The position numbers were made by a program, and so were the translations under genes. The notes below the pieces were generated by a model. That model did no database searches and was not told the origin of the DNA. It was given only the letters and a program-made list of their open reading frames with translations. A DNA stretch of 64,000 nucleotides from NCBI GenBank assembly GCA_964498585.1, contig CAZCHH010000009.1, positions 3,613 through 67,612 on the forward strand, given 5' to 3'. The stretch is from an uncultured Hyphomicrobiales bacterium (lineage in GTDB: Bacteria; Bacteroidota; Ignavibacteria; Kapaibacteriales; UBA2268). Shown here piece after piece: positions 3,124 to 62,471 of this stretch; position 1 is the stretch's first letter, and each line of letters starts with the position of its first letter.

Positions 3124-3360
3124 GTCATTCTGAACCCCAAGATAAAGCAAGTGCTTTATTTAAATAGAGATGACATCAATTAACACAGTCATTCTGAACG
3201 AAGTGAAGAATCCAGAGAGTAGTGGTTAAAAAATTTCTGGATTCTTCACTTCGTTCAGAATGACCGACAAACTATAATGTAATTCCGAAACGAAGTGAGG
3301 AATCTCAAGTATCGTGGTAGCAATGACTTGTGAGATTTCTCACTTCGTTTCGAAATGACA
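3124..3360. repeat. Mosaic cluster of three hairpin elements: A (3124-3176), B (3188-3264, a 35-bp perfect stem) and C (3283-3360).
   Basis: All three show gtcattctga...tcagaatgac-type palindromes. Copies of each family recur at ten or more other loci in the window. Confidence 0.7.
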
Positions 3361-3390
3361 CAATATAAAAAGTCTTTTAACGAATTATAA

Positions 3391-3438
3391 CACTAATCAT
3401 TTATCATTAACAATTAACAATTAATAATTAACAATTAT
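3391..3438. repeat. Heptameric tandem array (TAATCAT/TAACAAT)n that abuts the stop codon of the GH57 gene.
   Basis: Reads cactaatcatttatcattaacaattaacaattaataattaacaatt. Confidence 0.6.
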
Positions 3439-5157
3439 TTATTCTTTCCACCAGCTCAAATCAAGTTCGGTAAATAGAGAATTTCTTTGCTCTGTTTCTT
3501 CTATGTATTTCCAGTCCTGTGGAGAAAGTTGCCCAGTTTCCTTTAGCTTTTCAAGTTTATTGAGCATCGTATTGAAATCAGAATGATGAAATGAAAAGCG
3601 CTGTTCGGCATAGTCACGGGCAGAGAATGTATAAATCAGGAATTGCCAGTCAGATGCCTGCATTAATAATAACTCCCGAAGTGCCTGTTTCAAAACTCTC
3701 GTTTCATCTTCATTTAAATTATTTACGGGGTATTTTTCATAAACAGCTTTCAGACGATTTTCATTGTCGTAAAGTTGCACCCAAGTCCATTTTGTATCCT
3801 CATTACTCCAGACATCGTGATTATTATTTTCACCCCAGGAACCTTCGGGAAGTAGCATTACTTCCTTTGGTTTTATTCTGCTGTATTGCTCAAAAGTAGT
3901 TGCAGAATTAACGTAAGGAGAATGATGTAACCCTTTCAGCACTGCTTTTATAAATTGCGGACCTTCGAACCACCAATGCCCAAAAAGTTCGGTATCAAAA
4001 GGAGTGCAGACAGTAGCAAATTTTCCAGTTGTTCTTTGGTAAAAATTTGATGTGTTTTCGATATGATGGATAAAATGATTTGACTGCATATCAATTTTTT
4101 CTGCGGTCCAATCCGGGTGATAAAGAAGTTTATACATCATATCGGCTTTATTATCAGTAACCCGCCAATACCTTAGACGAGAATCATTACTTTTTTTATG
4201 GAAATCAAGATAGTTCGACTCTCCGGGATAGCCGACCTGACCACTCCAGACCTGCATAGAAATATCGTGATGTCGGGTAAAAGCTGCTGCAGTTCCATAT
4301 TGTGTCTTCTCGCTTGAACTACATTGAAATAAAGAAAGTGGTGATTTATCGAAGCTATTGGGAATATTTTCATAAGAATTTGAACCGATAGAAACAAATT
4401 TATCCTTTTCTGCATCAATAAAAACGCCGAGTGGAGTTGCTCTTTCTGTTAAATCCTGGTCTGTTATAAAATAATTCAAACCATACCGGGCAAGAAACTG
4501 CTCAATACCGGGTCGCAAATGCTCCTTGTGATAAGGAGCAATTGGAATAAGAGATTTCCAGTTATACGAAGGGCGGTAGGCACATTCTGGCAGCCATATT
4601 CCACGTGCTTCACGTCCAAAATGTTTTTTATAGTTTTCAGAAGCAAGCTGAACCTGCAAATTTACGCTTTTGTCTGTTGCAAGAAGAGGAAGATAGCCGT
4701 GAGTAGCGCCACAAGTAAGGATTTCTATAGCTCCGCTGTCCTGCAATTTTTTAAAAGCCCCTATAATTGAATTGCTGTATTTATGAACAAAGTCATTTTT
4801 CCTTTGCTCATACCACCACTGCCAGTATTTTGTTAAATAAATATGATGAAGGTCGTAGCCCCAGTCAGTATATTTTTTTTCATCACCTGAGGCAGCCGCA
4901 ATTTTTTCATCACAATATTTAATAAAAATTTCTTTGAAATCCTGATGCTCAAGCTGTTCACAAAGAACAGGAGATATATCCAAAGTAACTTTTGGATAAA
5001 TACCTTCTTCCATCAATTCATTAAATACATTAAGCAATGGGATATAACATTCGGCAACGGCTTCAGTGAGCCAATCGACTCCGTGGGGCCATGTGCCGTG
5101 GTGTAAAACCCATGGTAAATGGGTATGCAGGACTAATATGAAGTTTCCTGAGTGCAT
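3439..5157 (-). CDS. Glycoside hydrolase family 57 protein (alpha-1,4-glucan branching enzyme or amylase-like).
   Basis: The N-terminus reads LVLHTHLPWVLHHGTWPHG, typical of GH57. Length is 572 aa. Confidence 0.7.
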   Translation of the reverse strand: MHSGNFILVLHTHLPWVLHHGTWPHGVDWLTEAVAECYIPLLNVFNELMEEGIYPKVTLDISPVLCEQLEHQDFKEIFIKYCDEKIAAASGDEKKYTDWGYDLHHIYLTKYWQWWYEQRKNDFVHKYSNSIIGAFKKLQDSGAIEILTCGATHGYLPLLATDKSVNLQVQLASENYKKHFGREARGIWLPECAYRPSYNWKSLIPIAPYHKEHLRPGIEQFLARYGLNYFITDQDLTERATPLGVFIDAEKDKFVSIGSNSYENIPNSFDKSPLSLFQCSSSEKTQYGTAAAFTRHHDISMQVWSGQVGYPGESNYLDFHKKSNDSRLRYWRVTDNKADMMYKLLYHPDWTAEKIDMQSNHFIHHIENTSNFYQRTTGKFATVCTPFDTELFGHWWFEGPQFIKAVLKGLHHSPYVNSATTFEQYSRIKPKEVMLLPEGSWGENNNHDVWSNEDTKWTWVQLYDNENRLKAVYEKYPVNNLNEDETRVLKQALRELLLMQASDWQFLIYTFSARDYAEQRFSFHHSDFNTMLNKLEKLKETGQLSPQDWKYIEETEQRNSLFTELDLSWWKE

Positions 5158-5165
5158 AATTTCCT

Positions 5166-5498
5166 TTATAAAGCAGCTAATGCTTCTTGTTCAGTTTCAA
5201 CTACCTGGATAATTGAGATGAAACCGCTGATTTTAAAGATTTCTTTAATATTTTCATTCATAGCAAAAAGAACAACTGAGCCGTTTCCTTTTTTTGCTAA
5301 TTTTGCAAAAAGAAGAATTGCTCTAAGTCCAGAGCTGCTGATATACTCAATTTTTGAGAAATCAATCGCTAATTTGTTCTCACCAGCTTCGATAACCGGC
5401 TTAATTGTGTTTTCCAATGTTTCGCTGGAAACAGAATCAATTCTTCCGTTAATACGAATTATTAGTTTGCCGTCTTTTTTTTCCTGTAAAATTTCCAT
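5166..5498 (-). CDS. STAS-domain anti-sigma-factor antagonist (RsbV/SpoIIAA-like).
   Basis: 110 aa. Contains a conserved phosphorylatable serine context, DFSKIEYISSSGLRAIL. Confidence 0.75.
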   Translation of the reverse strand: MEILQEKKDGKLIIRINGRIDSVSSETLENTIKPVIEAGENKLAIDFSKIEYISSSGLRAILLFAKLAKKGNGSVVLFAMNENIKEIFKISGFISIIQVVETEQEALAAL

Positions 5499-5628
5499 TT
5501 GCTTTCCTTTTATATATAATGATTTGATTTTTCTTGCTAATTCATAACATTTTAAAATCCATACTACATTTCATTGCTATTTTTTGTATAAATTTCAAAG
5601 TGTAAAAATAAGAAAATAAAATGTATTT

Positions 5629-6039
5629 TTAAACTTTTTTAATTAAAGTTAATATGTTTTTATTATTAATTCTTTCATAATCAATATTATCCATAATATT
5701 CTTAACAAAGAAAATACCCAAACCGCCGATTTTCCTTTCTTCTAGCGATAATTCCGTGTTGGGGTCTTCTTTTAAAAGGGGATTAAATTCAATACCATCA
5801 TCTGTTATAGTTATTTTTAATTCACGATTTTCCAAAGAAAAATCAAGATTGATTAGATGTTCATTATTATCTTTAAAAGCATAATTGATGACGTTTGTAA
5901 CTGCTTCTTCCAATGCAAGATTGATATTAAATGTATGCTTAGCAACGGCTACCCACTTTTCTGAAAGTTGTTCAAGAAAGTTATCAAGTAAAATAATTTC
6001 GCTTATTTTATTTTTTAATGTTATGCTTGCTGTTTCCAT
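5629..6039 (-). CDS. Anti-sigma regulatory factor and serine kinase (RsbW/SpoIIAB-like, GHKL ATPase).
   Basis: 136 aa with a GGLGI G2-box. Adjacent to the STAS gene on the same strand. Confidence 0.65.
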   Translation of the reverse strand: METASITLKNKISEIILLDNFLEQLSEKWVAVAKHTFNINLALEEAVTNVINYAFKDNNEHLINLDFSLENRELKITITDDGIEFNPLLKEDPNTELSLEERKIGGLGIFFVKNIMDNIDYERINNKNILTLIKKV

Positions 6040-6070
6040 TTGATAGTTAATTATTAATGGTTATTTGGTT

Positions 6071-6105
6071 ATACTTCTTCCCAAGTTGCACTTGGGAAGA
6101 AGTAT
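6071..6105. repeat. Palindrome family H (cttcccaagttgcacttgggaag).
   Basis: Perfect 35-bp palindrome. Copies occur at 44358-44387, 44461-44488, 48100-48129 and 62164-62195. Confidence 0.6.
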
Positions 6106-6137
6106 TTCATTTAAGTTTTACTTTTTAAAATTATTAA

Positions 6138-6570
6138 CTCACCTTACGCATTCCCCTCTTGAGAGGGGCAGGGCTGATACGTTCTCTGAATCCACTTGTC
6201 TTATTCCAATCTCAAGAGTAATGACACGAAGATTAGTTAATAATTTGAATTTTTTTTAGCATAATTAATTTATTTAACTTTTATTATCTTTTTTATAATA
6301 AATAAAAACTTTAATAATAAAATCTTTTAACACCTCCCCTACCCCTCCTTATTAGGAGGGGAATAAGAACTGTTCTATGTCTTAGCGTTCCCCTCCTAAC
6401 AAGGAGGGGTAAGGGGAGGTGTATTATACTTGATTTAAACACGATAATATTTTATCATTTTATTCTGATATTACAAATATGGACAGCTACTTGAAATATT
6501 AGCAATTATCCATAATAATTAATTTCTTATCTTCGTGACATTACTCTCAAGAGGGGAATGGTAAGGTGAA
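6138..6570. mobile_element. Family-E hairpin element copy with a nested 91-bp C/G-tract palindrome (6331-6421).
   Basis: Same terminal sequences as 25-290. The internal repeat is cacctcccctacccctcctt...aaggaggggtaaggggaggtg. Confidence 0.5.
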
Positions 6571-6610
6571 TTATTAATTATCTTTCTTTATAAACTCATT
6601 AACCCAATAT

Positions 6611-6668
6611 CACTTATCATTAATCATTTATCATTTATCATTAATCACTTATCACTTATCATTTATCA
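6611..6668. repeat. Heptameric tandem array (TTATCAT/TTATCAC)n that abuts the stop codon of the CoA-transferase gene.
   Basis: Reads cacttatcattaatcatttatcatttatcattaatcacttatcacttatcatttatcact. Confidence 0.6.
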
Positions 6669-7862
6669 CTAAATAACTTGCTTTTCTTTAAATTCCTTAA
6701 TTTCTTCTAAAGTATAACCAACACCAGTTAGGATTTCTTCCGTATGCTCTGAAAGAAATGGAGGAGGAGCTTCGACTCCGCCGGGAGTTTTTTCAAATTT
6801 TGCTGTAATATTAAATAGTTTTAAATCACCAACACCTTCTGCGTTTACTTGCTCAAAAGTTTTGCGATGCTCAATTTGAGGAGCGGAAAGAGCATTTCCT
6901 AAATCAAGGATAGCTCCAGATGGAATATCGTGTTTGTTCAAAATTTCTACCCAGTAATCAGTATTTTGTTCCATCAATTTTTCATCTAAAAGCGGTTTTA
7001 AAACGTATCTGTTTTTTTTGCGTGTATCACGTTCTTTGAAACGTGGGTCTTCTTTTAGTTCAGCAAGATTTAAAATATCAGCAAGATTTTCCCATTGCTC
7101 CTGTTTGTTTGCTGCAATGTTTAAATATCCGTCCTTTGTTTTGAAAACGCCGGAAGGAGCAGCAGTAAAGTTTTCGTTGCCCATAAGCTGTGGCTGCTGT
7201 CCGCCAATCATAAGGTTTGCTACCACCCAACCCATAAGTGGCATAACTGAATCTAGAAGTGCGATGTCGATGAACTGTCCAATGCCAGTTTTTTCTCTGT
7301 AATAAAGAGCTGAACTAATAGCAAAGGCAGCGTTAAGACCGCCTACAGTATCGCAAAGCGGAAAGCCGGCACGAAGCGGATTAAGTCGTTCATCGCCATT
7401 GATTGCCATTACACCGCTTAATCCTTGAATGATTTGGTCGTAAGCCGGTTTGTCGGCATCGGGTCCTGTTTGACCAAAACCGGAAATGGCGCAATATATG
7501 AGCCGTGGATTAATTTCTTTTAAAGTATCATAGCCGACCCCGAGCCGAGTCATCACACCGGGACGGAAGTTTTCTACGACTACGTCAGCAGTAGCAGCTA
7601 ATTTCTTAAAAATATCTTTTGCTTTTTCCTGTTTTAAATTTAGTGTAACAGATTTTTTGTTAGCGTTTTGTGCGAGAAAAGATGTTCCCATTAGTTTTTT
7701 ATTGTAGTCGGGAACGCAGCCCAATTTGCGGGCTAAATCGCCGTCTTTGGGATTTTCTATTTTTATAACTTCAGCTCCGAGCCAAGCTAAATGTAATGTT
7801 GCAAAAGGACCGGACAGAACGTTTGTCAAATCCAGTACTCTTATTCCTTCCATTAGTTTCAT
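6669..7862 (-). CDS. Family III CoA-transferase (CaiB/BaiF/formyl-CoA transferase family).
   Basis: Motifs GIRVLDLT...GPFAT...LGAEVIKIE. Start trimmed to the ATG at 7862, which follows an AAGGAG ribosome-binding site. Confidence 0.8.
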   Translation of the reverse strand: MKLMEGIRVLDLTNVLSGPFATLHLAWLGAEVIKIENPKDGDLARKLGCVPDYNKKLMGTSFLAQNANKKSVTLNLKQEKAKDIFKKLAATADVVVENFRPGVMTRLGVGYDTLKEINPRLIYCAISGFGQTGPDADKPAYDQIIQGLSGVMAINGDERLNPLRAGFPLCDTVGGLNAAFAISSALYYREKTGIGQFIDIALLDSVMPLMGWVVANLMIGGQQPQLMGNENFTAAPSGVFKTKDGYLNIAANKQEQWENLADILNLAELKEDPRFKERDTRKKNRYVLKPLLDEKLMEQNTDYWVEILNKHDIPSGAILDLGNALSAPQIEHRKTFEQVNAEGVGDLKLFNITAKFEKTPGGVEAPPPFLSEHTEEILTGVGYTLEEIKEFKEKQVI

Positions 7863-8025
7863 ATATTCTCCTTTGTTGTATTTTAATTTGCTTGTCATAC
7901 TTGATTTTCCAAATAATTTGGAAAGTTTTTAAATTGATATGACATTTTATATAAAATTTTTCTTTTTTTAACTTTCGCAAAGTTAAAAAACTTTACTAAA
8001 GTATGTTCCTTCAAAAAAAATTGAT

Positions 8026-8237
8026 GCCATTCTGAAATCCCAGATAAAGCAAATGCTTCATTGTCATTGAGATGACATAATTTTACACAGTCATTCTGAG
8101 CGCAGCGAAGAATCCAGAGAATAGTGCTTAAAAAGAAATGTTTCTGGATTCTTCACTGCGTTCAGAATGACTGTGTTAAGCGATGTCATCTCCATTTAAA
8201 TAAAAGTCTTCCTTTATCGGAAGATTACCAATGACAT
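8026..8237. repeat. Mosaic hairpin cluster: A forward (8026-8078), B (8090-8171) and A reverse (8181-8237).
   Basis: Same families as 3124-3360. Confidence 0.7.
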
Positions 8238-11130: not shown

Positions 11131-11640
11131 GTCATTCCAAATCCCCAGATAAAGCAAATGCTTTATTATAATGGAGATGACAACATTAAATGTGTCATTC
11201 TGACGGATGTCAGAATCCATCTTATTATTATTCAACGCTATTCAATTTTAGTTAATTCATTGAAGCATTTGGGCTTGCCCAAATGTATCGTGAGCAAGCA
11301 CACTTGCTTTCCTAAGATGGATTCTGGCAGGCACCTGAATCCATCTTGGTTTTGTCTAATCAGAACGGACAAAGAGGCCATTAGTTGTTAGTAAAAATAC
11401 TAATGAGTAACAACTAATGATAAAAAAACAAATCAACCATCGGGTTAACCCGATGGTTGATTATAATGATAGATTCTGACATCCTTACCATTGACATCTT
11501 TTTTTGTCGGTCATTCTGAAGCGTTGTGAAGAATCCAGAGAAAGTGGTTTAAAGGAAATATTCTGGATTCTTCGTTGTGTTCAGAATGACAGTGTTAAGT
11601 TATTTCATCTCCTTTTAAATAAAGTATCTGCTTCATTTTG
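11131..11640. repeat. Mosaic hairpin cluster: A (11131-11182), a D-family composite MITE (11194-11486), B (11510-11589) and an A fragment.
   Basis: D terminal inverted repeat is gtcattctgacggatgtcagaatccatctt. Also contains the palindrome caaccatcgggttaacccgatggttg. The core recurs at 50462-50575 and 62345-62450. Confidence 0.7.
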
Positions 11641-17414: not shown

Positions 17415-17434
17415 AAATTTGAAATTGTCTGTTA

Positions 17435-17552
17435 TTCCGAAACGAAGTGAAGAATCTCAAGTATCGTGGTAGCAAGGATTTGTGAGATTCTTCACTTCGT
17501 TTCGGATTGACAGCCCCCAGTCATACGAACAACTTGTTGCTCGTATGACTGG
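17435..17552. repeat. Hairpin element C (17435-17512) plus the hairpin cagtcatacgaacaacttgttgctcgtatgactgg (17518-17552).
   Basis: Lies between two convergent genes. The second hairpin resembles the family-G hairpins at 55395-55522. Confidence 0.6.
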
Positions 17553-36650: not shown

Positions 36651-36659
36651 AAAGGTCTT

Positions 36660-38506: not shown

Positions 38507-38587
38507 GTCATTCTGAAGCGTTGTGATGAATCTCATGTTGCTTGTTAGCAATGAGTTGTGAGATTCCTCACTTCGTTTCTGAATGAC
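38507..38587. repeat. Hybrid B/C hairpin element.
   Basis: Reads gtcattctgaagcgttgtgatgaatctcat...gtgagattcctcacttcgtttctgaatgac. Confidence 0.6.
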
Positions 38588-41694: not shown

Positions 41695-41914
41695 GTCATT
41701 CTAGCGTATGCCAGAATCCATCTTGGTTTTCCCTAATTAATATGGACAAAGTGATTTTTAGTCATTGGTCATTAGTAGATACTAAAAATACTAATGACTA
41801 ATAACCTATAAAAACTTTTTTTAAGATGGATTCTGACATCCGTCAGAATGACGCTTTTAGTGATGTCAATTCCATTAAAATGAAGCATTTGTTTTATCTG
41901 GAGGTTTAGAATAA
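41695..41914. repeat. D-family hairpin MITE (41695-41851) plus a reversed A element (41862-41914).
   Basis: Terminal inverted repeats gtcattctagcgtatgccagaatccatctt ... aagatggattctgacatccgtcagaatgac. Confidence 0.7.
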
Positions 41915-41947
41915 CACAAATGAAATTTATTCCAACAGAACTCAATT

Positions 41948-48099: not shown

Positions 48100-48335
48100 C
48101 TCCTTCCCAAGTTGAATTTGGGAAGGAGGTGAAATGACATAATTAGACTGTCATTCTGACGGATGTCAGAATCCATCTTTAAAATCGTTCTTACGGTCAT
48201 TAGTTATTAGTCATTAGTTTTTATACTAATAACGAATGATAAAAAATGCAAGATAGATTCTGGCATACGCCAGAATGACAGACAAAGATGTCATTAACCA
48301 TCAGCACTTTATTCCCTCTCAAGAGTGAATTCGTA
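48100..48335. repeat. Family-H palindrome, a D-family MITE (48150-48279) and a family-E end fragment.
   Basis: gtcattctgacggatgtcagaatccatcttt ... agatagattctggcatacgccagaatgac. Confidence 0.7.
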
Positions 48336-48341
48336 AGTTCG

Positions 48342-50342: not shown

Positions 50343-50400
50343 AGTATTCCCTTAAATAAATTATTTATAACTGCTTTCGTTTTGAAAGTTCAGTTTCTTA

Positions 50401-50685
50401 TGAGATTCCTCACTTCGTTTCTGAATGACATCTTTACTTGTCATTCTGGCGTATGCCAGAATCTATCTTATTATTGTTCAATGCTATTCAATTTTAGCTA
50501 TTTCAAGGAAGCATTTGGGCTTGCCCAAATGTTACAAGTAAACAAGCTCACTTGCTTTCCCAAGATGGATTCTGACATCCGTCAGAATGACGCATTTTGT
50601 CATTTCCATTTAAATAAAGGTCTTTCTTTATTTGGGGGTTGCCAATGACATCTTTACTTTTCATTTTGTCATACGTCAGAATGAC
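50401..50685. repeat. C-element half, a D-family MITE with conserved core (50440-50591), a reversed A element (50598-50652) and a D-end fragment.
   Basis: Core ttcaattttagctatttcaaggaagcatttgggcttgcccaaatg... is shared with 11226-11335 and 62345-62450. Confidence 0.7.
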
Positions 50686-50780
50686 ACAAATACAATGTTT
50701 GTTTATTAATTAATAATAATATCAATTACTTACATCAATTTGGAAAGTTTAATAAGATTCTTTTAACTTAAAATACTTCA

Positions 50781-51634: not shown

Positions 51635-51662
51635 ATAGAGTTCTCCTAAAATTAAAAAATCT

Positions 51663-51887: not shown

Positions 51888-51900
51888 TTTGACTCCGTGG

Positions 51901-51935
51901 TATATTTTAAAATTTCAAAAAACAATATAAGCAAA
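51901..51935 (-). promoter_or_regulatory. Conserved palindromic upstream element of CsbD-like paralog 1.
   Basis: tatattttaaaatttcaaaaaacaatataagcaaag. Nearly identical to 55141-55178. Confidence 0.45.
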
Positions 51936-52068
51936 GACGAATCAATAATTGTTATATAATTAAATATATTATTCATATAATTTACATATTTATTGAGTTA
52001 TTTTTAATTAGTCATAATATTCTGTATAAATATTTATTAAGATGAGTCTTAATAATTCAATTTTGTCG

Positions 52069-52496
52069 GTCATTCTGAACCCCCCGAAAAAATGAGAATT
52101 TTTTTTAAATGGAGATGACATAAATCAATAAAGCATTATGTTAAATTGAACAAGAGAAATCCCCCCTACCCCCCTTTTTCAAAGGGGGGTATGAAGGATT
52201 TCTTAGTGCTGTTCTGTATTCCATTGATTTCCCCAAAAAGATGTCATTGGCAACTCCCCAATATAAAGAAAAGCTTTATTTAAATGGAGATGACATAAAT
52301 TTACACTGTCATTCTGACATCCGCCAGAATGACATCGCTATTTATATGAACCAAAACTTTACGAAAGTTAAAAAACTTTCGCAAACTAAGAAGAACTAAA
52401 TACTTTCGTAAAGTTTCTTAACTTTGCGAAAGTTTAATTTATGTCATTTCTATTTAAACATAAATTCTCATTTTTCTAAGGGGGGTTCAAAATGAC
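52069..52496. mobile_element. Composite element bounded by inverted A-variant copies (52069-52121 forward; 52441-52496 reverse).
   Basis: Both end copies share the private insertion ccccccgaaaaaatgagaatt. The interior carries a C/G-tract palindrome, an A copy, a mini-D and the family-F hairpin aactttcgcaaagtt. Confidence 0.55.
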
Positions 52497-52545
52497 AGAT
52501 TACAAAAAGTCATTTAAACAAATTACAATACTATACAGCTGAACT

Positions 52546-52591
52546 CTTAATAATTAACAATTAATAATTAACAATTAACAATTAACAATTA
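52546..52591. repeat. Heptameric tandem array (TAACAAT)n ending on the stop codon of the histidine kinase gene.
   Basis: Reads cttaataattaacaattaataattaacaattaacaattaacaatt. Confidence 0.6.
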
Positions 52592-54874
52592 ATTCAAATA
52601 TTTGCTTATTATTTCATACACTTTTTTCTTAACGAGTGGTTTGATTAAATAGTCATCGCATCCTATAGATAGTATAGTATTTCTTTCTTCGCTAAAGGCA
52701 TAAGCGGTTTGAGCAATTATTGGTAAATCCGGTCTAATCTTTTTAATTATCTTTGTTGCTTCGATTCCATCCATAACCGGCATTCTGATATCCATTAAAA
52801 TCAAGTCGATGTCTGGAATATTTTTAACAATTTCTACTGCCTGCTCTCCATTAATAGCATGAATAACATTGATACCTGATTCACCTAAAAGCCGAATAAG
52901 ATACTGCGTGCTTATCCAATCATCTTCAGCAACAAGAACTGTCCCTTTCGTTCCCTTGACTGTTTTACCTGTATCTTCACTCACCGGTTCAAAATATTGA
53001 GCAATAGGAATATATGGGATAGAAAAATAAAATGTTGAACCAACATTTAATTCGGATTCCACCCAAATCTTTCCACCAATAAGTTCAACAAGTCCCTTGC
53101 AAATTGCGAGTCCGAGACCAGCTCCTTCAAACCCTCTTGATATACTCAAGTCAGCTTGTGTGAACTTATCGAAAATTTTCTCGTGAAATTCTGGAGTTAT
53201 TCCAATTCCAGTATCTTTTACGTAGAACTGAACAATTTCACCTTTGATTTCATAACCAAAATCAATACTCCCAGACATTGTAAATTTTATTGCATTATTG
53301 ATTAAGTTTGTCAATATCTGAAACAGCTTGGATTCGTCTGAATAAATTAATTCATTTGTATCATCGGTGCAATGGTAGTTTAATGTAATATTTTTTGTTC
53401 GTGCAAAAGGAGAGAAAAATGTAAGTAAATCTGAAAATATCGAATTAATACTAATAGTTTTTTGTTCTAATTTAAACTGTCCTGTTTGAATTTTAGAAAT
53501 ATCAAGTATATTGTTTACAATTTCAATTAGCCGTTTTCCACTTTGGGAAATCATAGCTGTAAATTCTTTAATATCATCTTTGCTTAAGTCATCTGCATTT
53601 AATAAAGTAGAAAAACCAATAATTCCATTTAAAGGAGTTCGTATTTCATGAGACATATTTTGCAAGAAAGCTGTTTTTAACTTATCACTTTCTTCTGCTT
53701 TCATTTTTGTAAGCATCAATTCTTGTTCAGCTATCTTTCTGTCTGTAATATCAAAGCAATGTCCGATATAACCAACAAATTCACCTTTGCTGTTATAATT
53801 CGGTGTTCCTAAATCATTAATCCAGCGATATTCTCCATTTGCATTTTTTAATCGGTATTCCATTTCAAATGTATCCCGTTTATAGAAAGCAGATATATAA
53901 ATTTTTAAGCAATTATCCAAATCATCAGGATGAACCCCATCAGTCCAGCCATTACCCATTTCCTGCTCAATAGTTTTTCCAGTAAAACTAAGCCATGCCT
54001 TGTTGAAATAATTACATAGCTTATCTGTTCCGGAAGTCCAAATTAGCGCAAGACCGGAATCGGCAAGCATTTTGTATTGCACCTCTTTTTCGCAAAGTTC
54101 ATTTTCTGCCCGTTTCCGTGCTGTTATATCGCGAATATTACATTGAATCACGTTTTGATGGTCAACTTTATATACATTGCTTACAAATTCAACATTAATT
54201 TTGCGTCCATTAGAAGTTTCTAATGGCAAATCATCATAACGAACATAATTATTCTCTTTTAATTCCAAAAACTTTTCCTGGTTAGATATGATATCCCTAA
54301 ATAATCCAATATCCCAGATTTTCTTTTCTACGAACTGTTCATAAGAATAGCCGAGCAATTCAATCAGGAAAGGATTAATATCAACAATTTTCCCTGTTTC
54401 TGCATCTAAAATAATAATTCCGTCTTTAGTTGACTCAAATAGGCGCCGGTATCTTGCTTCAGAATCAAAAAGTGCATCATTAATAATTTTTTGTTCGGTT
54501 ATATCCCGTAATACAATGAAAAATATTATTTCATCATCTATAATTCTTTTACTAATGCTTACTTCGACTGGAAACATTTTACCACTTTTGTGAACTCCGT
54601 TCAGTTCTAAACCTTTGCTCATCTTTAGAGTATTTTCAATTGAATTTTGAAAATTTTTTACATTCTCACGATGCTTTTCTTTTACTAAAGGAGGAATAAG
54701 AATATCAAGCTGCCTGCCGATGACTTCATCGCATTTATAACCAAATATTCTTACCGCTCCCTGATTGAAGAAAATTATATTATATTTTCCATCAATCGCT
54801 ATAAATGCGATTTGGTCAATATTTTCAACACTGGATAACAGTGCTTCGCTTGTTATATAATTTTTCTTTTCCAT
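52589..54874 (-). CDS. Hybrid sensor histidine kinase (PAS x3, HisKA, HATPase_c, receiver).
   Basis: H-box SHEIRTPLN. G-boxes DTGIGI and GLGLAICK. C-terminal receiver with the conserved Asp (LILMDIRMP). Confidence 0.85.
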   Translation of the reverse strand: MEKKNYITSEALLSSVENIDQIAFIAIDGKYNIIFFNQGAVRIFGYKCDEVIGRQLDILIPPLVKEKHRENVKNFQNSIENTLKMSKGLELNGVHKSGKMFPVEVSISKRIIDDEIIFFIVLRDITEQKIINDALFDSEARYRRLFESTKDGIIILDAETGKIVDINPFLIELLGYSYEQFVEKKIWDIGLFRDIISNQEKFLELKENNYVRYDDLPLETSNGRKINVEFVSNVYKVDHQNVIQCNIRDITARKRAENELCEKEVQYKMLADSGLALIWTSGTDKLCNYFNKAWLSFTGKTIEQEMGNGWTDGVHPDDLDNCLKIYISAFYKRDTFEMEYRLKNANGEYRWINDLGTPNYNSKGEFVGYIGHCFDITDRKIAEQELMLTKMKAEESDKLKTAFLQNMSHEIRTPLNGIIGFSTLLNADDLSKDDIKEFTAMISQSGKRLIEIVNNILDISKIQTGQFKLEQKTISINSIFSDLLTFFSPFARTKNITLNYHCTDDTNELIYSDESKLFQILTNLINNAIKFTMSGSIDFGYEIKGEIVQFYVKDTGIGITPEFHEKIFDKFTQADLSISRGFEGAGLGLAICKGLVELIGGKIWVESELNVGSTFYFSIPYIPIAQYFEPVSEDTGKTVKGTKGTVLVAEDDWISTQYLIRLLGESGINVIHAINGEQAVEIVKNIPDIDLILMDIRMPVMDGIEATKIIKKIRPDLPIIAQTAYAFSEERNTILSIGCDDYLIKPLVKKKVYEIISKYLN

Positions 54875-54904
54875 AAAACCCGAATTATAATTCTACATTC
54901 TTAA

Positions 54905-55129
54905 TTATATCGCTTCGATGAACTTATGCAATCCATCTTTGGTTTTGCCTATTACATCACCAATTTTTGAATTGATTCTTTCCATCAGGCCATCTTCCTG
55001 ACCATCTTTAAATTCCAAGTCAGTATCCGATAATTGAGGGAATTTCTCCTTAAGTTTACTCTTTTTTTCATCCCATAATTTTTTGTTAAACGTTAAGGAT
55101 TTTTTGGGGTTTTTGTAAGCCGTTTTCAT
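54905..55129 (-). CDS. CsbD-like small stress protein, paralog 2.
   Basis: Start trimmed to MKTAYKN (GGAGG ribosome-binding site). About 55% identical to 51663-51887. Confidence 0.5.
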   Translation of the reverse strand: MKTAYKNPKKSLTFNKKLWDEKKSKLKEKFPQLSDTDLEFKDGQEDGLMERINSKIGDVIGKTKDGLHKFIEAI

Positions 55130-55140
55130 AATGCCTCCGA

Positions 55141-55178
55141 TATATTGTTTTAAAATTTCAAAAAACAATATAAGCAAA
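55141..55178 (-). promoter_or_regulatory. Conserved palindromic upstream element of CsbD-like paralog 2.
   Basis: tatattgttttaaaatttcaaaaaacaatataagcaaaag (inverted repeat atattgtttt N8 aaaacaatat). Confidence 0.45.
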
Positions 55179-55394
55179 AGGATAGAGGTATGAGTTACAT
55201 AATTAGTAAAACTTTTCATATAATTTACTGATTTTATTGGTATTTCCGAATTAGTGCCAGTGCATAATCTTTATATACATATACGCAATGAGTAACTAAA
55301 AATCAAATAATTTTGGAAATTAAATTCTCTGGAAAGTTGGGAAACTTTGGGAAAGAAATAAAAAAACTATACCAAATAGCTAATAAACTGAATA

Positions 55395-55522
55395 ATTCAT
55401 CCGATGACTTCCCAGTCATCAGATGAATAGATTCAGACAAAGCGTGGCAGTCATACTATCAACAAGTTGATAGCATGACTTCTATCTTGTCATGCTATCA
55501 TTTCCCAATGATAGTATGACTG
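55395..55522. repeat. Three family-G hairpins with gtcat...atgac ends.
   Basis: attcatccgatgact/agtcatcagatgaat; gtcatactatcaac-aa-gttgatagcatgac; gtcatgctatcat...atgatagtatgac. Confidence 0.55.
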
Positions 55523-55618
55523 AATGGATTGATTAAGAAATGATTAGAAAGGAAATTATAAAGGGAAATATATTATGGTAGCAAGAATTTATTAGAAAAA
55601 AGGTATATGGAAGGGATT

Positions 55619-56179
55619 TTATAGGTTATTAATTCCTTTGCGTCTTTTTACACTCAAATTTTTGAAAAAAGTTGGGGTTAGTCCAGTTACTTTTTTAAAT
55701 TGGAATGATAAGTGCTGCACACTGCTATAATGCAACTTCCAGGCAATTTCAGAAAGATTTAGTTCATTATAAACCAATAATTCTTTTACCCGTTCAATTT
55801 TCTGATGAATAATGAAATGCTCTATAGTAGTGCCATGGACTTCTGAGAACAGATTGGAAAGATATTTATAATCATATTGCAATTGCTCGCTAATAAAATC
55901 TGAAAAATTTATATTTAATTCTTCCTCAGAATAATGAATTTGTTCAATTATAATGTTTTTGATTTTTTCAATTAGCATTGCACGTTTATCAGCAATAAGT
56001 TCCAAGCCGAATTTCTTCAATGACTTATCTATTTCTTCAAATTGTTCATTTGAAAAACTATCAATAATATCAACTTCACCTAAAACCAAATTTGAATAAC
56101 GTAATCCCAGCTTTTCCAAAACATCTTTAACTACTAACTTGCATCGAATACATACCATATTTTTTATATATAGCTTCAT
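55619..56179 (-). CDS. AraC-family transcriptional regulator with an N-terminal heavy-metal-associated (HMA, MxCxxC) domain.
   Basis: N-terminus MKLYIKNMVCIRCKLVVKDVLEKLGL (HMA-like). C-terminal AraC helix-turn-helix (...IAWKLHYSSVQHLSFQFKKVTGLTP). Confidence 0.6.
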   Translation of the reverse strand: MKLYIKNMVCIRCKLVVKDVLEKLGLRYSNLVLGEVDIIDSFSNEQFEEIDKSLKKFGLELIADKRAMLIEKIKNIIIEQIHYSEEELNINFSDFISEQLQYDYKYLSNLFSEVHGTTIEHFIIHQKIERVKELLVYNELNLSEIAWKLHYSSVQHLSFQFKKVTGLTPTFFKNLSVKRRKGINNL

Positions 56180-56456
56180 TAATTAAAAATCCTATTGTTG
56201 ATTAATCTTACACATTAAAGAAAATATTTTTTTTAACATTTTAAAATACAAAAATATTTTATATGTTGCAAAATATTACCTTGTCCTATGAGAAAAAAAA
56301 TTCATTAACATTTTCCGTTTAAAAATTCAGAACTTTGGCACCATAAATTTTTTTATTTCGCAGTTTATCAAATGAAAACTCTTATTTTAAAAGTGAATTA
56401 CTAATTCGTTATTAGTAGTTACAAACATATAACTAATGACTAAATACCAATAACCA

Positions 56457-56484
56457 CAATTAGCAATTAATAATTAACAATTAT
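56457..56484. repeat. Heptameric tandem array next to the stop codon of the VWA gene.
   Basis: Reads caattagcaattaataattaacaattat. Confidence 0.5.
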
Positions 56485-57477
56485 TTACGGCACTCTTCTA
56501 AAAACAGTATAGCTCAATATTATTTCAAATGCAATTAGAATGGCTGCAAGAATTGCGAGCGGAAGGAACTCGTCCCGATATTGACTGAAAGTAAGTTCGT
56601 CAATAGCAGTTTTTTCCATTTTGTCAATTTCAGCGTAAACTTCCTTGAGTCCTTTGTTGTTTGTAGCACGGAAGTATTTTCCGCCAGTCATATTTGAAAC
56701 CTGTTTGAGCAAATCTTCATCAATTTGCACTTCAATATTTTGGTATTGGATACCAAAAGGCGTTTTAAATGGATAAGGAGCCATACCGCGAGTACCAACG
56801 CCGATAGAATACACTTTCATTTTAAAAGATTTTGCAATTTCAGCAGCAGTCATAGGTGCAATGTAGCCAGTATTGTTTACTCCATCAGTAATTAGAATAA
56901 TCACTTTGCTTTTCGCGGTGCTGTTCATCAGCCGGTTGACAGCAGTTGCAAGCCCAAGCCCTATTGCAGTTCCGTCCTCAACCATATTTGTTTTTATGCC
57001 TTCAAATAAATTTTTGAGAGTGCTGTGGTCAGTAGTTAAAGGGCATTGAGTAAAACTTTCCCCTGCAAATACAACAAGACCAATCCTGTCATTCTGGCGG
57101 TTGTCAATGAACTCAATTGCAGTTTTCTTTGCAGCTTCAAGGCGGTTTGGAGAAAAATCCTTTGCTTCCATTGATGTAGAAATATCAAGGGCAACCACAA
57201 TGTCGATGCCCTCTGTTTTCACTTCTTTGTGGCTCAAAGTGGATTGTGGGCGTGCAAGAATGACGATAATCGTTGCAATAAGCAAAATCCTTAAAACAAA
57301 AAGTATATGCCTGAAAATTTGCTTAGCAGATGTTTTGGTTTGAATTAGCGGCTCTATTGTCGAAACCTGTAATTTCGGCTTTTGCTTCTTTTCCCGGAAA
57401 ACATACCAGGCAATCAAAAAAGGAATAATTATCAAAAAATAAAAATAGCCCGGCGATACAAAAATTATGTGTTCCAC
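56485..57477 (-). CDS. von Willebrand factor A-domain membrane protein (BatA-like).
   Basis: N-terminal transmembrane segments. MIDAS-like motif DISTSM...T...DG. C-terminal transmembrane segment. Confidence 0.7.
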   Translation of the reverse strand: MEHIIFVSPGYFYFLIIIPFLIAWYVFREKKQKPKLQVSTIEPLIQTKTSAKQIFRHILFVLRILLIATIIVILARPQSTLSHKEVKTEGIDIVVALDISTSMEAKDFSPNRLEAAKKTAIEFIDNRQNDRIGLVVFAGESFTQCPLTTDHSTLKNLFEGIKTNMVEDGTAIGLGLATAVNRLMNSTAKSKVIILITDGVNNTGYIAPMTAAEIAKSFKMKVYSIGVGTRGMAPYPFKTPFGIQYQNIEVQIDEDLLKQVSNMTGGKYFRATNNKGLKEVYAEIDKMEKTAIDELTFSQYRDEFLPLAILAAILIAFEIILSYTVFRRVP

Positions 57478-59417: not shown

Positions 59418-59705
59418 TTAATGAAGAATCTCATAAGTCATTGCTAATACAGAATTCGAGATTCTTCGCTCAGTTTCTAAAAAACCACTTCGGTTTTTTT
59501 TAACACATGACTGTTTAGATTACAATATATTTCAAGAGATATATCAACCATCGGGTTAATCCGATGGTTGATTATTCTTAACAATGGATTAGTATGATTT
59601 TGTTCATTTTCACAAAAGAAAACTTAATCGTTTATATTCGACTCAGATTAACTGTGTAAAATTATATCATCTCTATTTATATTAAGCATTTGCTTTATCT
59701 GTGCG
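59418..59705. repeat. Degenerate hairpin cluster: a C-like hairpin, the palindrome caaccatcgggttaatccgatggttg, and a reversed A fragment.
   Basis: tgaagaatctca...gagattcttcg at 59418-59470. Same palindrome as 11440-11470. Confidence 0.5.
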
Positions 59706-61230: not shown

Positions 61231-62065
61231 TAAAAATGATTTTGATAGTATTATCCAATTTAAGAATTCTTTAATTCAATATGGGAAAAATAGCGATAGA
61301 GTTTATCTAATGAAACTTGATAGTAACGAAAATGAGGTTATTAGTTTTATTGAACAATTAGCTATTGAAAATGATTTAGGAAAAATTTTTACTAAAGTTC
61401 CGGAAACTTCTATTCAAGCTTTTCTTAATAATAATTATAGAATTGAAGCAGAAATTCCAAATTACTTTAAAAGTGATAAATGTTATTTTGCTTCAAAATT
61501 TGTAAAAAAAGAAAGAGAATTTGTTAGCGAAGAACTTTCTTTAGAAATAGAAAATAATATTAAACTTGCTAAATCAAAAGCAAGTTCTGAAATGAAGGAA
61601 TTTGATAGCTCAATTAGAATTAAAGTTTTAGATTCAAAAGATTTAGAAAAAGCGGCTGAACTTTACCGAATAGTTTTCAAATCATATCCTTTCCCAATTT
61701 TTGACGCATCATATTTAGAAAGCACATTAGACCATATTATGTATTTTGGTGCTTTTGTAAATGGGCAGCTTGTTGCCTGCTCATCATCTGAAATGTATGT
61801 TCAGGATTCAAGCGTTGAAATGACTGATTTTGCAACTCTTCCAGATTATCTTGGGAAAAATATCAGTTCTATGCTTCTGTTTACAATGGAAAATGTTATG
61901 AAAGCAAATGGAATAAATACTTCCTACACTATTGCAAGAGCAATGTCGAAAGGAATGAATATTACTTTTGCAAAAAATGCTTATACGTTTTCCGGAACTT
62001 TGATTAATAATACTGATATTTTTGGTAAAATTGAATCTATGAATGTTTGGTATAAACATTTGTAA
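61223..62065 (+). CDS. ablB: GNAT-family acetyltransferase, putative beta-lysine N6-acetyltransferase (AblB/YodP-like).
   Basis: Follows kamA directly. Its ATG overlaps the kamA stop by 8 bp (ATGAATAG). GNAT-like C-terminal half. Start chosen at MNSKNDF. Confidence 0.55.
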
Positions 62066-62087
62066 TAACATTCAGGTATCCTGATTA

Positions 62088-62160
62088 GTTATTGGGTTAT
62101 TGGGTTATTGGTTTATTGGTTATTAGTTATTGGGTTATTGGGTTATTGGGTTATTGGGTT
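62088..62160. repeat. Tandem array (GTTATTGG)n, about 9-10 units.
   Basis: Reads gttattgggttattgggttattggtttattggttattagttattgggttattgggttattgggttattgggtt, immediately after the ablB stop. Confidence 0.7.
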
Positions 62161-62258
62161 GAACTCCTTCCCAAGTTGCACTTGGGAAAGAGAAGATAGC
62201 ATTCAAAGTGCGAAAAATCAGAACTCCTGATGCCTCGTAGTTTGTTATTTCTAGGGCT

Positions 62259-62471
62259 TGTCATTCTGAATCAACTTATAAAGCAAGTGCTTTATTATAA
62301 TGGAGATGACATAATTTTACCGTGTCGTTCTGACGGATGTCAGAATCCATCTTATTATTCTTGAGCTTCTATTCGATATTAACTATTTCACGGATGCATT
62401 TGGGCTTGCTCAAATGTTTTATGAGAAAGCTCACTTGATTTACAATATGGATTCTGGCATACGCCAGAATG
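62259..62471. repeat. A element (62259-62311) plus a D-family MITE with conserved core (62324-62471). Preceded by a family-H palindrome at 62164-62195.
   Basis: gtcgttctgacggatgtcagaatccatctt ... atggattctggcatacgccagaatgat. Confidence 0.7.

Follow-up and report, generated by a model that had tools for sequence, protein, structure and literature searches.

The 64-kb stretch of DNA analysed here (the window) carries 12 intergenic arrays built from modules with GTCAT...ATGAC ends, and these arrays are probably SRM hairpin repeats of the NTS/dRS3 type, a new case of a repeat class that is already known. All 12 clusters listed in the first-pass annotation are present and lie between ORFs (Table 1), and repeat finding recovered its module families A, B, C, D and G. 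Allowing at most one mismatch, GTCATTCTGA matches the window 31 times, compared to 4.6 ± 1.95 expected from dinucleotide shuffles (maximum 10), while bare GTCAT/ATGAC is only mildly enriched (139 versus 102 ± 8). We defined a strict architecture as GTCAT, an anchored stem (≥5 bp), a loop no longer than 12 nt and then a 3' C; 14 such sites were found in the window against 0.56 ± 0.74 in shuffles (maximum 3), and all 14 fall within arrays. When folded as single-stranded DNA, the modules are far more stable than their shuffles, with z values from -2.5 to -13. These results support the earlier description of a BIME-like, modular mosaic of intergenic hairpins.

Some details of that description had to be revised. 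The perfect stem of module B measures 29 bp (3188-3216 paired with 3236-3264) and not 35 bp. Nor does every module start with GTCAT and end with ATGAC: the C modules at 3278 and 17430 start with GTAAT and GTTAT, the A module at 8026 starts with GCCAT, and the D unit of array 12 departs at both termini. The cluster at 59418-59705 is real, but it contains only degenerate remnants instead of intact modules.

Table 1. Arrays of the window, their modules and hairpins, and their folding as single-stranded DNA
Array	Coordinates	Modules and hairpins (strand)	Setting and fold
1	3124..3360	A 3124-3176 (+); B 3188-3264; C 3280-3359; B and C are inverted arm pairs, B arms SRM-type; arm hairpins 3188 (+), 3264 (-), 3359 (-)	Between convergent ends of an MmeI-type R-M gene and a GH57 gene; B fold -31.7 kcal/mol, z = -13.4
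2	8026..8237	A 8026-8078 (+); B 8090-8171; inverted A 8184-8237; jointly an imperfect inverted repeat (95-nt arms, 74% complementary)	
3	11131..11640	A 11131-11183; D-type unit with 8-bp-stem hairpin at start, 11194-11219 (+), and degenerate right-hand hairpins 11313-11342, 11468-11500; B 11510-11590; degenerate inverted A ~11596-11640	
4	17430..17551	C 17430-17513; G-type palindrome GTCATACGA..TCGTATGAC 17518-17551	z = -10.6 and -5.9
5	38507..38587	Lone C module	
6	41695..41917	D unit 41695-41852, hairpin termini 41695-41720 (+), 41827-41852 (-), core a hairpin of GTCATTR heptamers; inverted A 41864-41917; exact SRM-pattern match 41694-41721	
7	48150..48279	One D unit: left hairpin 48150-48175 (+), GAC-GGAT-GTC type; right hairpin 48254-48279 (-), GGC-GTAT-GCC type; exact SRM-pattern match 48253-48280 (-)	z = -8.5; ahead of the D unit, an unrelated CTCCTTCCCAAGT...ACTTGGGAAGGAG-type hairpin, 48102-48128
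8	50398..50686	Half C arm 50398-50430; D unit 50440-50591; inverted A 50598-50651; degenerate hairpin 50655-50685; exact SRM-pattern match 50439-50466	
9	52069..52496	A 52069-52121; A 52244-52296; fused 26-nt palindrome GTCATTCTGACATCCGCCAGAATGAC 52308-52333; E module based on AACTTTCGYAAAGTT ~52340-52436; inverted A 52436-52496	z = -5.4
10	55395..55522	Three short G-type palindromes, GTCAT/ATGAC in or at the stem	z = -3.9 and -8.6
11	59418..59705	Remnants: C-like hairpin without GTCAT ends 59418-59475; hairpin CAACCATCGGGTTAATCCGATGGTTG ~59538-59563 (near-identical copy at 11436-11461); inverted A remnant ~59655-59705	
12	62260..62472	A 62260-62312; D unit 62324-62472, termini slightly decayed (GTCGT..., ...AATGAT)	

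What is conserved is a short hairpin on one strand, GTC-ATTCnnnn-loop-nnnnGAAT-C, which occurs in two forms. At the D termini its stem is 8 bp long and its loop 4 nt, while in the B and C arms a 5-bp stem is followed by a conserved GA/GA mismatch pair and then by 2 bp of stem closed by a GNA triloop. The units are arranged in inverted pairs, which places one on each DNA strand, with either a short loop (B and C) or a core of 70-250 bp (D) as spacer, and the pairs are often preceded by module A. Module A itself and the G palindromes are without SRM architecture. The E module is present in seven near-full copies in the window and the set of loci studied alongside it.

Compensatory changes had been claimed for A/G positions in the D termini, but we find them in the B and C arms. 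The D termini fall into two linked haplotypes that differ in stem and loop at once (across the window and low-GC loci, 62 GAC-GGAT-GTC and a further 13 with a GAAT loop, 24 GGC-GTAT-GCC, and few mixed forms), and taken alone they are weak evidence for covariation. The B and C arm stems, on the other hand, occur in three compensated states (CC/GG, CT/AG and TC/GA), with full pairing in 92 of 104 arms. Over the B/C alignment, 96.2% of cells are paired and 33 are changed on both sides, compared to 11 in shuffles, none of 500 of which reached the observed value. The two arms carry differing compensated variants in 20 of the 32 B/C elements, which breaks the long stem; what is preserved is therefore each strand's local hairpin, and to read B and C as long perfect stems is misleading. 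Preservation of the local hairpin points to a DNA-level, strand-specific function.

The same data bear on an RNA role, in which the long B, C and D hairpins would act as terminators or mRNA-stabilising structures, a role suggested for REP/BIME, and resemble each other by descent only. These hairpins are indeed very stable, four arrays (at 3124, 11131, 17430 and 62260) lie between convergent gene ends and six more lie downstream of a gene end. Array 2, however, is on one side upstream of the start of gene 6669-7898 and not past a gene end, and no Rfam family was matched. The GA/GA pair is confined to the GTCAT-reading strand of each arm; the arms show it on opposite strands, and its placement is thus independent of the direction of transcription. 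This strand-symmetric conservation, together with the broken long stems, argues against an RNA role as the primary one, and we consider such a role unlikely.

NTS and Ssn-related motifs (SRM) have been reported together with SsnA, a GIY-YIG single-strand DNA nuclease (Nat Commun 2025;16:2388; PMC11893778), and cleavage of such hairpins by this small nuclease was recently demonstrated for Neisseria and other bacteria. In the Neisseria NTS, CGTCATTCCCGCGMAVGCGGGAATCYRG, cleavage is governed by the GTC just 5' of the palindrome, and the base most critical for binding is the C directly after it (PMC11893778). The hairpins described here have the same organisation, with a 5' GTC(A/T)(T/C) head abutting an ATTC...GAAT palindrome and C next to it on the 3' side; in both systems the hairpin sits on one defined strand and is found in hundreds of intergenic copies, across phyla. 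GTC before and C after the palindrome were present in 115 of 126 matches, where GTC is given by construction, the search having fixed GTCATTC...GAAT, and C by count. Exact matches to the published SRM pattern number three in the window, compared to 0.03 in shuffles. Most copies fail the strict pattern because their stems are AT-richer (CTGAC/CTGGC here versus CCCGC), with A/T where the pattern demands S, and the B/C-arm form with its GA/GA pair and GNA triloop does not appear in the SsnA paper.

A link to a nuclease gene comes from outside the window. We scanned metagenomes with a pattern consisting of the hairpin, an 18-48 nt spacer and a Y-x-Y-I codon motif, which returned two contigs and no others. 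Both carry GTCATTCTGGCGTATGCCAGAATC, 29 nt, a 96-aa ORF and an inverted hairpin. The ORF belongs to PF01541 GIY-YIG (Pfam, E = 8e-16), and the 23-mer that flanks it on both sides, inverted, is identical to the hairpin of the window. Four more homologues, of Bacteroidota, Ignavibacteria and related origin, repeat the hairpin-gene-hairpin layout; their sources are Tenacibaculum, an Ignavibacteriaceae MAG and two further low-GC contigs. In every case seen, the gene that this hairpin type flanks is of the GIY-YIG kind. NCBIfam has no model for it, and the ~96-aa GIY-YIG family, placed by Pfam PF01541, is putatively ssn-type and may correspond to cd10448 or SsnA.

No ssn/GIY-YIG gene was found in the window itself, nor in 423 kb of sequence taken from two MAGs that are ~90% identical (a sample that we estimate is probably less than one-tenth of each genome), and the cognate ssn of the window lineage is predicted. 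Of the SRM-rich genomes, 19% are without ssn (PMC11893778). The earlier statement that the window lacks a transposase also holds, as Pfam found no Y1 or other transposase, and no other candidate enzyme gene for the repeats, among all window ORFs of at least 100 aa; any enzyme must therefore act in trans. No transposase was found in the 423 kb of relatives either.

The first-pass annotation had assigned this trans-acting role to an HUH/Y1 transposase (RAYT or TnpA), the arrays being REP/REPIN or IS200/IS605-derived miniature elements. Like the REP, BIME and REPIN elements of E. coli and Pseudomonas, the arrays are mosaics of short extragenic palindromes in inverted doublets and alternating orientation, non-autonomous and presumably served by one single-copy enzyme acting on single-stranded hairpins, and the Ssn paper itself likens its repeats to REP/BIME (PMC11893778). 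No target-site duplications are visible at the module ends inspected in the window, as would be the case for single-strand transposition, although this also agrees with the SRM reading, and a weak RAYT-like match was found in an unrelated 39%-GC MAG locus (L065), 6.5 kb from its hairpin. The head, though, is GTCAT abutting ATTC...GAAT-C, the NTS/SRM signature, and not of the GTAG type, and the ends are symmetric, whereas those of IS200/IS605 differ between left and right. Pfam reported no Y1_Tnp in the window ORFs, no RAYT was detected in the window or the 423 kb, and tblastn with IS200 and IS608 TnpA gave no match in either, a test with two queries whose sensitivity is low and, for divergent RAYTs, limited. 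The hairpin-flanked genes seen code for GIY-YIG nucleases throughout and not for HUH/Y1 transposases. We find this assignment quite improbable.

Comparison with relatives shows how the arrays change. The elements occur genome-wide in relatives, in line with the earlier expectation: we counted 243 hairpin-architecture sites in 487 kb, made up of the window and low-GC loci that were chosen for carrying a hairpin. Among strains of 95-100% identity, both sites that were checked have the arrays at the same positions. Module content and order differ at two orthologous sites compared between two ~90%-identical relatives of the window. In the ~90%-identical relative L026, collinearity is interrupted at array 2, where ~400 nt of unrelated sequence is found, and ends at array 1. 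All eight same-species assemblies break in array 3 at 11545 or 11554, within B, and same-species contigs end in array 8 at 50562-50564 in a D terminus (4/5) or at 50634 (1/5). A strain-variable 18-kb segment has its breakpoints within heptamer/octamer tandem arrays; its left edge is 44 nt from the C module of array 5, which lies inside the segment, and the other breakpoint is within a hairpin at 56410-56440. Structural differences between relatives also tend to start at the arrays or close to their edges. In a few cases, arrays were also seen at the edges of variable genes and beside surface-protein genes.

Two further mechanisms can be weighed against these observations. The modules share terminal sequences, have differing interiors and reach a high copy number in relatives, as would MITEs in which A, B, C and D carry a ~10-bp terminal inverted repeat (GTCATTCTGA) and are cut and pasted by one DDE transposase from a full-length IS elsewhere. 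This is very unlikely given that the modules are not bordered by target-site duplications, the inverted repeat continues into the flanks, and conservation reaches past the terminal repeat into an internally compensated hairpin; moreover, positions are fixed at both array edges checked in strains 95-100% identical, and the 786 ORFs of the window and 91 loci yielded no multi-copy ORF or transposase. The arrays as recombination junctions would also be compatible with dRS3-like sites used by a phage-encoded transposase or recombinase of the IS110/Piv type, dRS3 being the integration site of Neisseria filamentous prophages. We hold this for highly unlikely, since the window and the loci have neither such a recombinase nor a prophage, 2.9 million viral contigs are free of the hairpin, and the mechanism explains how the sites are used but not their origin or the hairpin-specific covariation.

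The closest known counterparts of the arrays are found in Neisseria, where dRS3-RS-dRS3 intergenic arrays were reportedly described by Parkhill in 2000. A 2007 account covers these intergenic mosaic elements, and such arrays were then not observed outside Neisseria (Bentley 2007; PMC1797815). The D units share their plan of inverted 20-26-nt hairpins around cores of 50-250 bp, in several families, and both systems form concatenated intergenic arrays with conserved positions, varying repeat number and order, and a location by variable-gene edges and surface-protein genes (few cases here). The host phylum differs, and the arrays here have additional modules (A, the short-loop doublets B and C, and the G palindromes) as well as D cores made of GTCATTR heptamers. 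Palindromic elements of Rickettsia have a GTCATTGCGAGG...GCAATC-type hairpin form and are often inserted in frame within genes, unlike the window copies, which are all intergenic. In one locus (L123), the ssn homologue has a similar hairpin upstream, and both Rickettsia and Wolbachia were counted among SRM-rich genomes (PMC11893778).

Taken jointly, the reading of the arrays as mosaics of SRM/NTS-type hairpins seems to us reasonably likely to be right, and would make them the counterpart, for a Kapabacteria-like genome, of the Neisseria intergenic mosaic elements. The functional unit would be the hairpin that forms when the strand with 5'-GTC-ATTCnnnn-loop-nnnnGAAT-C-3' is single-stranded. A cognate Ssn for this lineage, its cleavage at these hairpins and the way in which the copies spread are matters of inference. 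By analogy with SsnA, a GIY-YIG nuclease of ~95 aa, coded at another place in the genome, would bind this hairpin in its folded state and nick the DNA strand a few nt 5' of GTC. The arrays would then be preferred sites of single-stranded DNA processing and recombination, and their modules may be slowly reshuffled for this reason.

All twelve intergenic clusters listed in the first-pass annotation were found in place, each lying between ORFs and holding up to four modules, although the cluster at 59418-59705 is now represented only by remnants. The module families, namely, A (53 nt), B and C (short-loop inverted pairs of hairpin arms), D (hairpin termini around a core), and G (short palindromes), were also recovered by repeat finding. 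Many copies carry the GTCAT ends that had been ascribed to every module, but several heads have decayed (GTAAT, GTTAT, GCCAT, and GTCGT), and the perfect stem of module B measured 29 bp instead of 35 bp. Allowing at most one mismatch, GTCATTCTGA occurs 31 times in the window compared to 4.6 ± 1.95 times in shuffled sequences. A stricter site, defined as GTCAT with a perfect stem of 5 bp or more that begins at its A, a loop of no more than 12 nt, and then C, was found 14 times, compared to 0.56 ± 0.74 times in shuffles (maximum of 3), and all 14 sites fall inside arrays. When folded as single strands, the modules showed stabilities far above those of shuffled sequences, with -31.7 kcal/mol for the B module at 3188-3264 (z = -13.4), z values of -6.5 to -10.6 for C copies and -3.9 to -8.6 for G palindromes, and -6.5 and -7.8 kcal/mol for the 30-nt D termini (z = -2.9 and -5.7).

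The D termini read (T)GTC-ATTCTGRC-GKAT-GYCAGAAT-C, that is, a stem of 8 bp closed by a loop of 4 nt, preceded by GTC and followed by C. The arms of B and C share this frame, GTC-ATTxx-GA-(A)-xC-GNA-Gx-GA-yyAAT-C, in which a conserved GA/GA mismatch pair separates the outer stem (5 bp) from the inner stem (2 bp) and a triloop closes the hairpin. Tandem G.A mismatches, like C-GNA-G loops, have unusually high stability in DNA. Each of B, C, and D is an inverted hairpin pair presenting one GTCAT-reading hairpin on each DNA strand, which explains the common GTCAT...ATGAC ends noticed before.

Compensatory A/G changes had been proposed for the D termini and the stem variants are indeed paired, but they form two subfamilies, GAC-GGAT-GTC (62 copies and a further 13 with a GAAT loop) and GGC-GTAT-GCC (24 copies), with mixed forms being rare. 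Since the stem variant is linked to a loop base, this covariation is weak evidence when taken alone. The B/C arms tell more: at two stem positions they show three compensated states (CC/GG, CT/AG, and TC/GA), their inner stem alternates between AC..GT and GC..GC, and pairing is complete in 92 of 104 arms. When 56 distinct arms were aligned, 96.2% of the cells were paired and 33 had changes on both sides; shuffles gave 11 ± 2.3, and 0 of 500 reached the observed value. All slid registers of the alignment collapse. The stem is therefore kept in the B/C arms. The two arms differ in variant in 20 of the 32 complete elements, leaving the long stem mismatched and each arm hairpin intact, so what is preserved is, on either strand, the short hairpin. 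This conservation and the strand specificity of the GA/GA mismatch pair argue for an orientation-dependent role at the DNA level and against hairpins that function primarily in RNA or as terminators. A search of the window with Rfam at gathering thresholds and a tRNA scan returned nothing.

This frame is exactly that of the Neisseria hairpin repeat NTS and of the Ssn-related motif (SRM), with a GTC head, an ATTC...GAAT palindrome, and a C. NTS, CGTCATTCCCGCGMAVGCGGGAATCYRG, is cut by SsnA, a 94-amino-acid single-domain GIY-YIG nuclease that binds the hairpin, once folded, in single-stranded DNA (ssDNA) alone and on just one strand, and cuts a few nucleotides upstream of it (PMC11893778). Cleavage is governed by the three bases before the palindrome, while the C after the palindrome is most critical for binding (PMC11893778). 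In our data, (T/A/G/C)GTCAT precedes the stem in 14/14 strict sites, 75 of the 104 B/C arms have TGTC in front, and the base after GAAT was C in 115 of the 126 matches of a search fixing only GTCATTC...GAAT. The degenerate SRM pattern, HGTCWYN(0-2)YYVSBRHN(0-5)WNVSBRGN(0-2)RNCYNB (PMC11893778), is matched exactly by 3 window copies compared to 0.03 in shuffles. The remaining copies, including the GAC-GGAT-GTC subfamily and the B/C arms, miss it at the S positions, having A/T in the stem where the published pattern wants C/G, in a genome of low GC content. We consider it highly probable that the window hairpins belong to the NTS/SRM class.

We scanned metagenome contigs for the hairpin followed after 18 to 48 nt by a GIY codon pattern (F/Y-x-Y-I/V/M), which returned only two contigs (L098 and L099), derived from another organism with ∼44% GC. 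Both have the same layout, in which GTCATTCTGGCGTATGCCAGAATC is followed after 29 nt by a 96-amino-acid ORF starting MNSYYVYILASKKNGTLYTGVTSDL (Pfam GIY-YIG, E = 8e-16) and then by the inverted hairpin GGATTCTGGCATACGCCAGAATGAC; in L098 the ORF lies at 814-1104. Homologues of the encoded protein are likewise flanked, each by its own hairpin variant (see the table). Judging from these hairpin-gene-hairpin layouts, the window hairpins are of the class found alongside small GIY-YIG genes, and one window subfamily is identical to such a flank. The 96-amino-acid family, a cd10448 candidate, fits the published description of Ssn proteins as single-domain proteins of about 95 amino acids flanked on both sides (PMC11893778). 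Gene callers translate such hairpins, and the public Ssn entries P0125, P0157, P0201, P0227, and P0005 are extended in this way (for example, MPAQAGIQ..., ...GCQPALA, and MSFRARHGI); a spurious window ORF (52241-52399) similarly contains CHSDIRQND, encoded by the palindrome at 52308.

The 23-mer TCATTCTGRCGKATGYCAGAATC was found at 91 or more loci in a scan of genome collections. Among the matches listed, most come from two Kapabacteria-like metagenome-assembled genomes (MAGs), one from an Ignavibacteria MAG, and others from about 15 high-GC gammaproteobacterial MAGs, where the 23-mer stands in NTS-like inverted pairs. The exact hairpin TCATTCTGGCGTATGCCAGAATC is present in 1 or 2 copies per gammaproteobacterial MAG (Thiogranum, Thiodiazotropha, Thiohalobacter, and others), often beside a CCGGC-type hairpin. 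The shared 23-mer may stem either from horizontal spread or from convergence under the constraint of one protein, and we do not claim transfer because those Gammaproteobacteria carry many hairpin variants. The hairpin had zero matches in viral contigs.

The absence of a transposase gene from the window was confirmed by Pfam searches of every ORF of at least 100 amino acids, which also detected no GIY-YIG protein; searches for GIY-YIG/Ssn by regular expression and tblastn, covering the window and the loci, gave none either. With tblastn, no Ssn homologue was found in the window or across 423 kb from two ∼90%-identical relatives, a sample that by our estimate probably covers less than a tenth of either genome. 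IS200/IS608 TnpA was likewise undetected in the same DNA using approximate queries of limited sensitivity, which gave one weak RAYT-like match, in an unrelated 39%-GC MAG. Comparison of 786 ORFs (window and 91 loci) all against all yielded no multicopy transposase, only type IX secretion (T9SS)-tail proteins and ABC ATPases, and ORFs that convergent hairpins bracket in the relatives proved spurious or were ordinary genes, without a nuclease or transposase among them by Pfam. From 240 Ssn homologues, P0222, P0155, P0198, and P0111 were picked by amino acid composition as candidates for the lineage's own ssn and rejected, as they come from other organisms with other hairpin variants. Hairpin-derived peptide tags matched none of the 240, and none of those with many Logan contigs is low-GC in appearance. 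We infer the cognate enzyme of the lineage from the hairpin class, with no gene for it in the sampled DNA.

The first-pass reading of a BIME-like mosaic of single-strand hairpins whose enzyme is encoded elsewhere holds, but its assignment to an HUH/Y1 enzyme does not. REP/REPIN elements served by a RAYT (Y1) do not fit a head that is GTCAT and not of the GTAG type, and Y1 is absent from the window by Pfam and from the low-GC loci by tblastn at its limited sensitivity. Miniature elements derived from IS200/IS605 (PATE-like) would be expected to have distinct left and right subterminal hairpins with specific cleavage tetranucleotides, like the ends of a full element with tnpA and/or tnpB, whereas both ends here are inverted copies of one hairpin, and the sampled DNA contains neither a tnpA-like sequence nor multicopy ORFs. 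Classical MITEs with terminal inverted repeats are also not supported, since target-site duplications are not visible at any module border and a parent insertion sequence is absent from the sampled DNA.

The window has a GC content of ∼32%, and Pfam assigns the type IX secretion sorting domain Por_Secre_tail to several of its large proteins, which places the lineage in the FCB group. A locus (L026) of the Candidatus Kapaibacterium sp. MAG DAIOVK01 is ∼90% identical to window positions 3393-7871. A second MAG, CAZCLJ01 (for example, loci L003, L008, L028, and L040), is ∼80% identical to the window at L003. Its title, "uncultured Hyphomicrobiales bacterium," is probably a taxonomic error given its GC content of ∼32% and its 87 to 91% identity to DAIOVK01 over their overlaps. 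Using small conserved proteins as queries, we located the window species in Logan assemblies, and it is present at 95 to 100% identity in several public sequencing-run assemblies. SRA runs SRR8925732, SRR8925803, SRR8925766, and SRR27676571/573 contain it. An exact-protein look-up with the 793-amino-acid T9SS protein of the window gave no record.

At array 3 (11131-11640), contigs of 8 assemblies (95.5 to 100% identity) end at 11545 or, in one of the eight, at 11554, and at array 8 (50398-50686) contigs end at 50562-50564 in 4 of 5 assemblies and at 50634 in the fifth. These identical edges indicate that the arrays are fixed in the species and break short-read assemblies. With regard to presence or absence between close relatives, array positions are the same at these two arrays in strains of 95 to 100% identity, whereas module content differs in relatives of 87 to 91% identity, as seen at two orthologous intergenic sites of DAIOVK01 and CAZCLJ01. 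The loop of a C module is also inverted between relatives (L012:2330-2420 versus L028:2238-2321) with the outer arm sequence unmoved, suggesting that the loop was flipped when the two inverted arms recombined. Collinearity of the window with L026 ends at array 1 (3124-3360); at array 2 (8026-8237), ∼400 nt are replaced, ∼325 nt align again, and identity is lost after ∼8595.

A larger rearrangement joins 38463 to 56419 in four independent same-species assemblies (L104, L105, L106, and L109), from which the 18-kb segment 38464-56418 is absent at that site. Two other contigs (L107 and L108) retain the window arrangement at the left edge of the segment, and a gene inside it (50781-51119) turned up only in samples that do not include the four with the junction. 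Both breakpoints fall in tandem arrays of the heptamer/octamer kind, one of them 44 nt away from the C module at 38507 and the other inside a hairpin at 56410-56440. Of the twelve arrays, six are in the segment, whose genes are mostly those of outer-membrane proteins, glycosyltransferases, and regulators.

The Neisseria dRS3 repeat is ATTCCC-N8-GGGAAT. As in the Neisseria mosaics, hairpin inverted repeats flank cores (in Neisseria, ∼20 bp and 50 to 150 bp, respectively), several families coexist in intergenic arrays, and the arrays are syntenic between relatives with variable content. Bentley et al. described mosaic elements of stable position and changing content, in arrays beside variable genes (PMC1797815), and stated that such arrays were not seen outside Neisseria (PMC1797815). 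The pattern that we observe by sequence comparison is what was described there.

Module A is not an SRM. It has 41 copies in the 487 kb examined, and in 24 of 42 cases, among loci chosen for D hairpins, a same-orientation SRM-type hairpin follows after ∼12 nt. By analogy with SsnA, a predicted cut would fall in the spacer between module A and the hairpin.

Several other repeats accompany the arrays. Tandem arrays of 7 to 8 nt (ATGATTA, TTAACAA, TCATTTA, and GGTTATTG), reminiscent of cyanobacterial STRR repeats, stand at many gene ends, and the D-module cores at 41748-41818 and 48196-48240 are hairpins made of GTCATTR heptamers, the hairpin head itself. Two copies of a separate hairpin family without GTCAT ends form a 52-nt inverted pair at 44357-44489. 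Several G/C-rich hairpins lie in the 6.0- to 6.7-kb gap, the center of which (∼6180-6630) does not align to the ∼90%-identical L026. An A-rich intergenic array at 25472-25744 has a 21-nt period and about 10 units (61 to 77% identical), and the Band_7/SPFH ORF 17563-19152 contains three tandem 132-nt coding repeats at 18130-18525 (65 to 73% identical).

Positions and composition of hairpin modules, flanking hairpins, and accompanying repeats
Feature	Location	Description
D units	41695-41852, 48150-48279, 50440-50591, 62324-62472	Inverted hairpins flank core
Orthologous site 1, shared by DAIOVK01 and CAZCLJ01		C+D versus C (loop inverted)+D+inverted A
Orthologous site 2, shared by DAIOVK01 and CAZCLJ01		A-E-D versus D-A-C (E, a further module)
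7-8-nt tandem arrays	3086-3110, 3386-3448, 6615-6663, 36609-36657, 52547-52609, 56446-56494, 62076-62165	
GTCAT-less hairpin family	6076-6102, 44360-44386, 44462-44488, 48102-48128, 62166-62192	CTCCTTCCCAAGT-TGCA-ACTTGGGAAGGAG
G/C-rich hairpins	25-66/233-274, 6130-6176, 6336-6415, 6545-6579, 52155-52203	TTCCCCTCTTGAGAGGGG and CCCCTACCCCTCC...GGAGGGGTAAGGGG types
Tenacibaculum homologue of the 96-amino-acid protein		Flanking hairpin ATTCCTGC-GTAG-GCAGGAAT
Homologues in an Ignavibacteriaceae MAG and another FCB-type contig		Flanking hairpin ATTCCCGC-GWAA-GCGGGAAT
Homologue in a 35%-GC contig		Whole hairpin mosaic
Gammaproteobacterial loci with TCATTCTGGCGTATGCCAGAATC, among the matches listed	L017, L025, L027, L033, L035, L038, L045, L054, L062, L064, L068, L074, L075, L078, L085, L086	

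Taken as a whole, the mechanism that we favor, with moderate confidence and by analogy with Neisseria, is that of NTS/SRM-type hairpins in Neisseria-like mosaic arrays that would serve as substrates of an Ssn-family GIY-YIG single-strand nuclease. Preservation of a short strand-specific hairpin and not of the long palindrome is the expectation for the target of an ssDNA nuclease. We regard as improbable the further step in which the inverted doublets B, C, and D together with A are copied through an ssDNA intermediate by a GIY-YIG Ssn protein, with hairpin-ssn-hairpin as the autonomous form. If true, this would be a hitherto unrecognized transposon class with neither a DDE nor an HUH enzyme, and the 23-mer shared by the Kapabacteria-like lineage, Gammaproteobacteria, and the ssn flank of a third organism would reflect horizontal spread.

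The kind of element was recently described, while the lineage is new. AT-rich hairpins, including those with the GA/GA mismatch and GNA triloop, escape the published pattern, and censuses based on it may therefore undercount low-GC genomes. In practice, the arrays break short-read assemblies and, once translated, enter public databases as false extensions of proteins. The Ssn/NTS system and the Neisseria-style mosaic array would thereby reach a free-living, T9SS-encoding, Kapabacteria-like FCB lineage with ∼32% GC.
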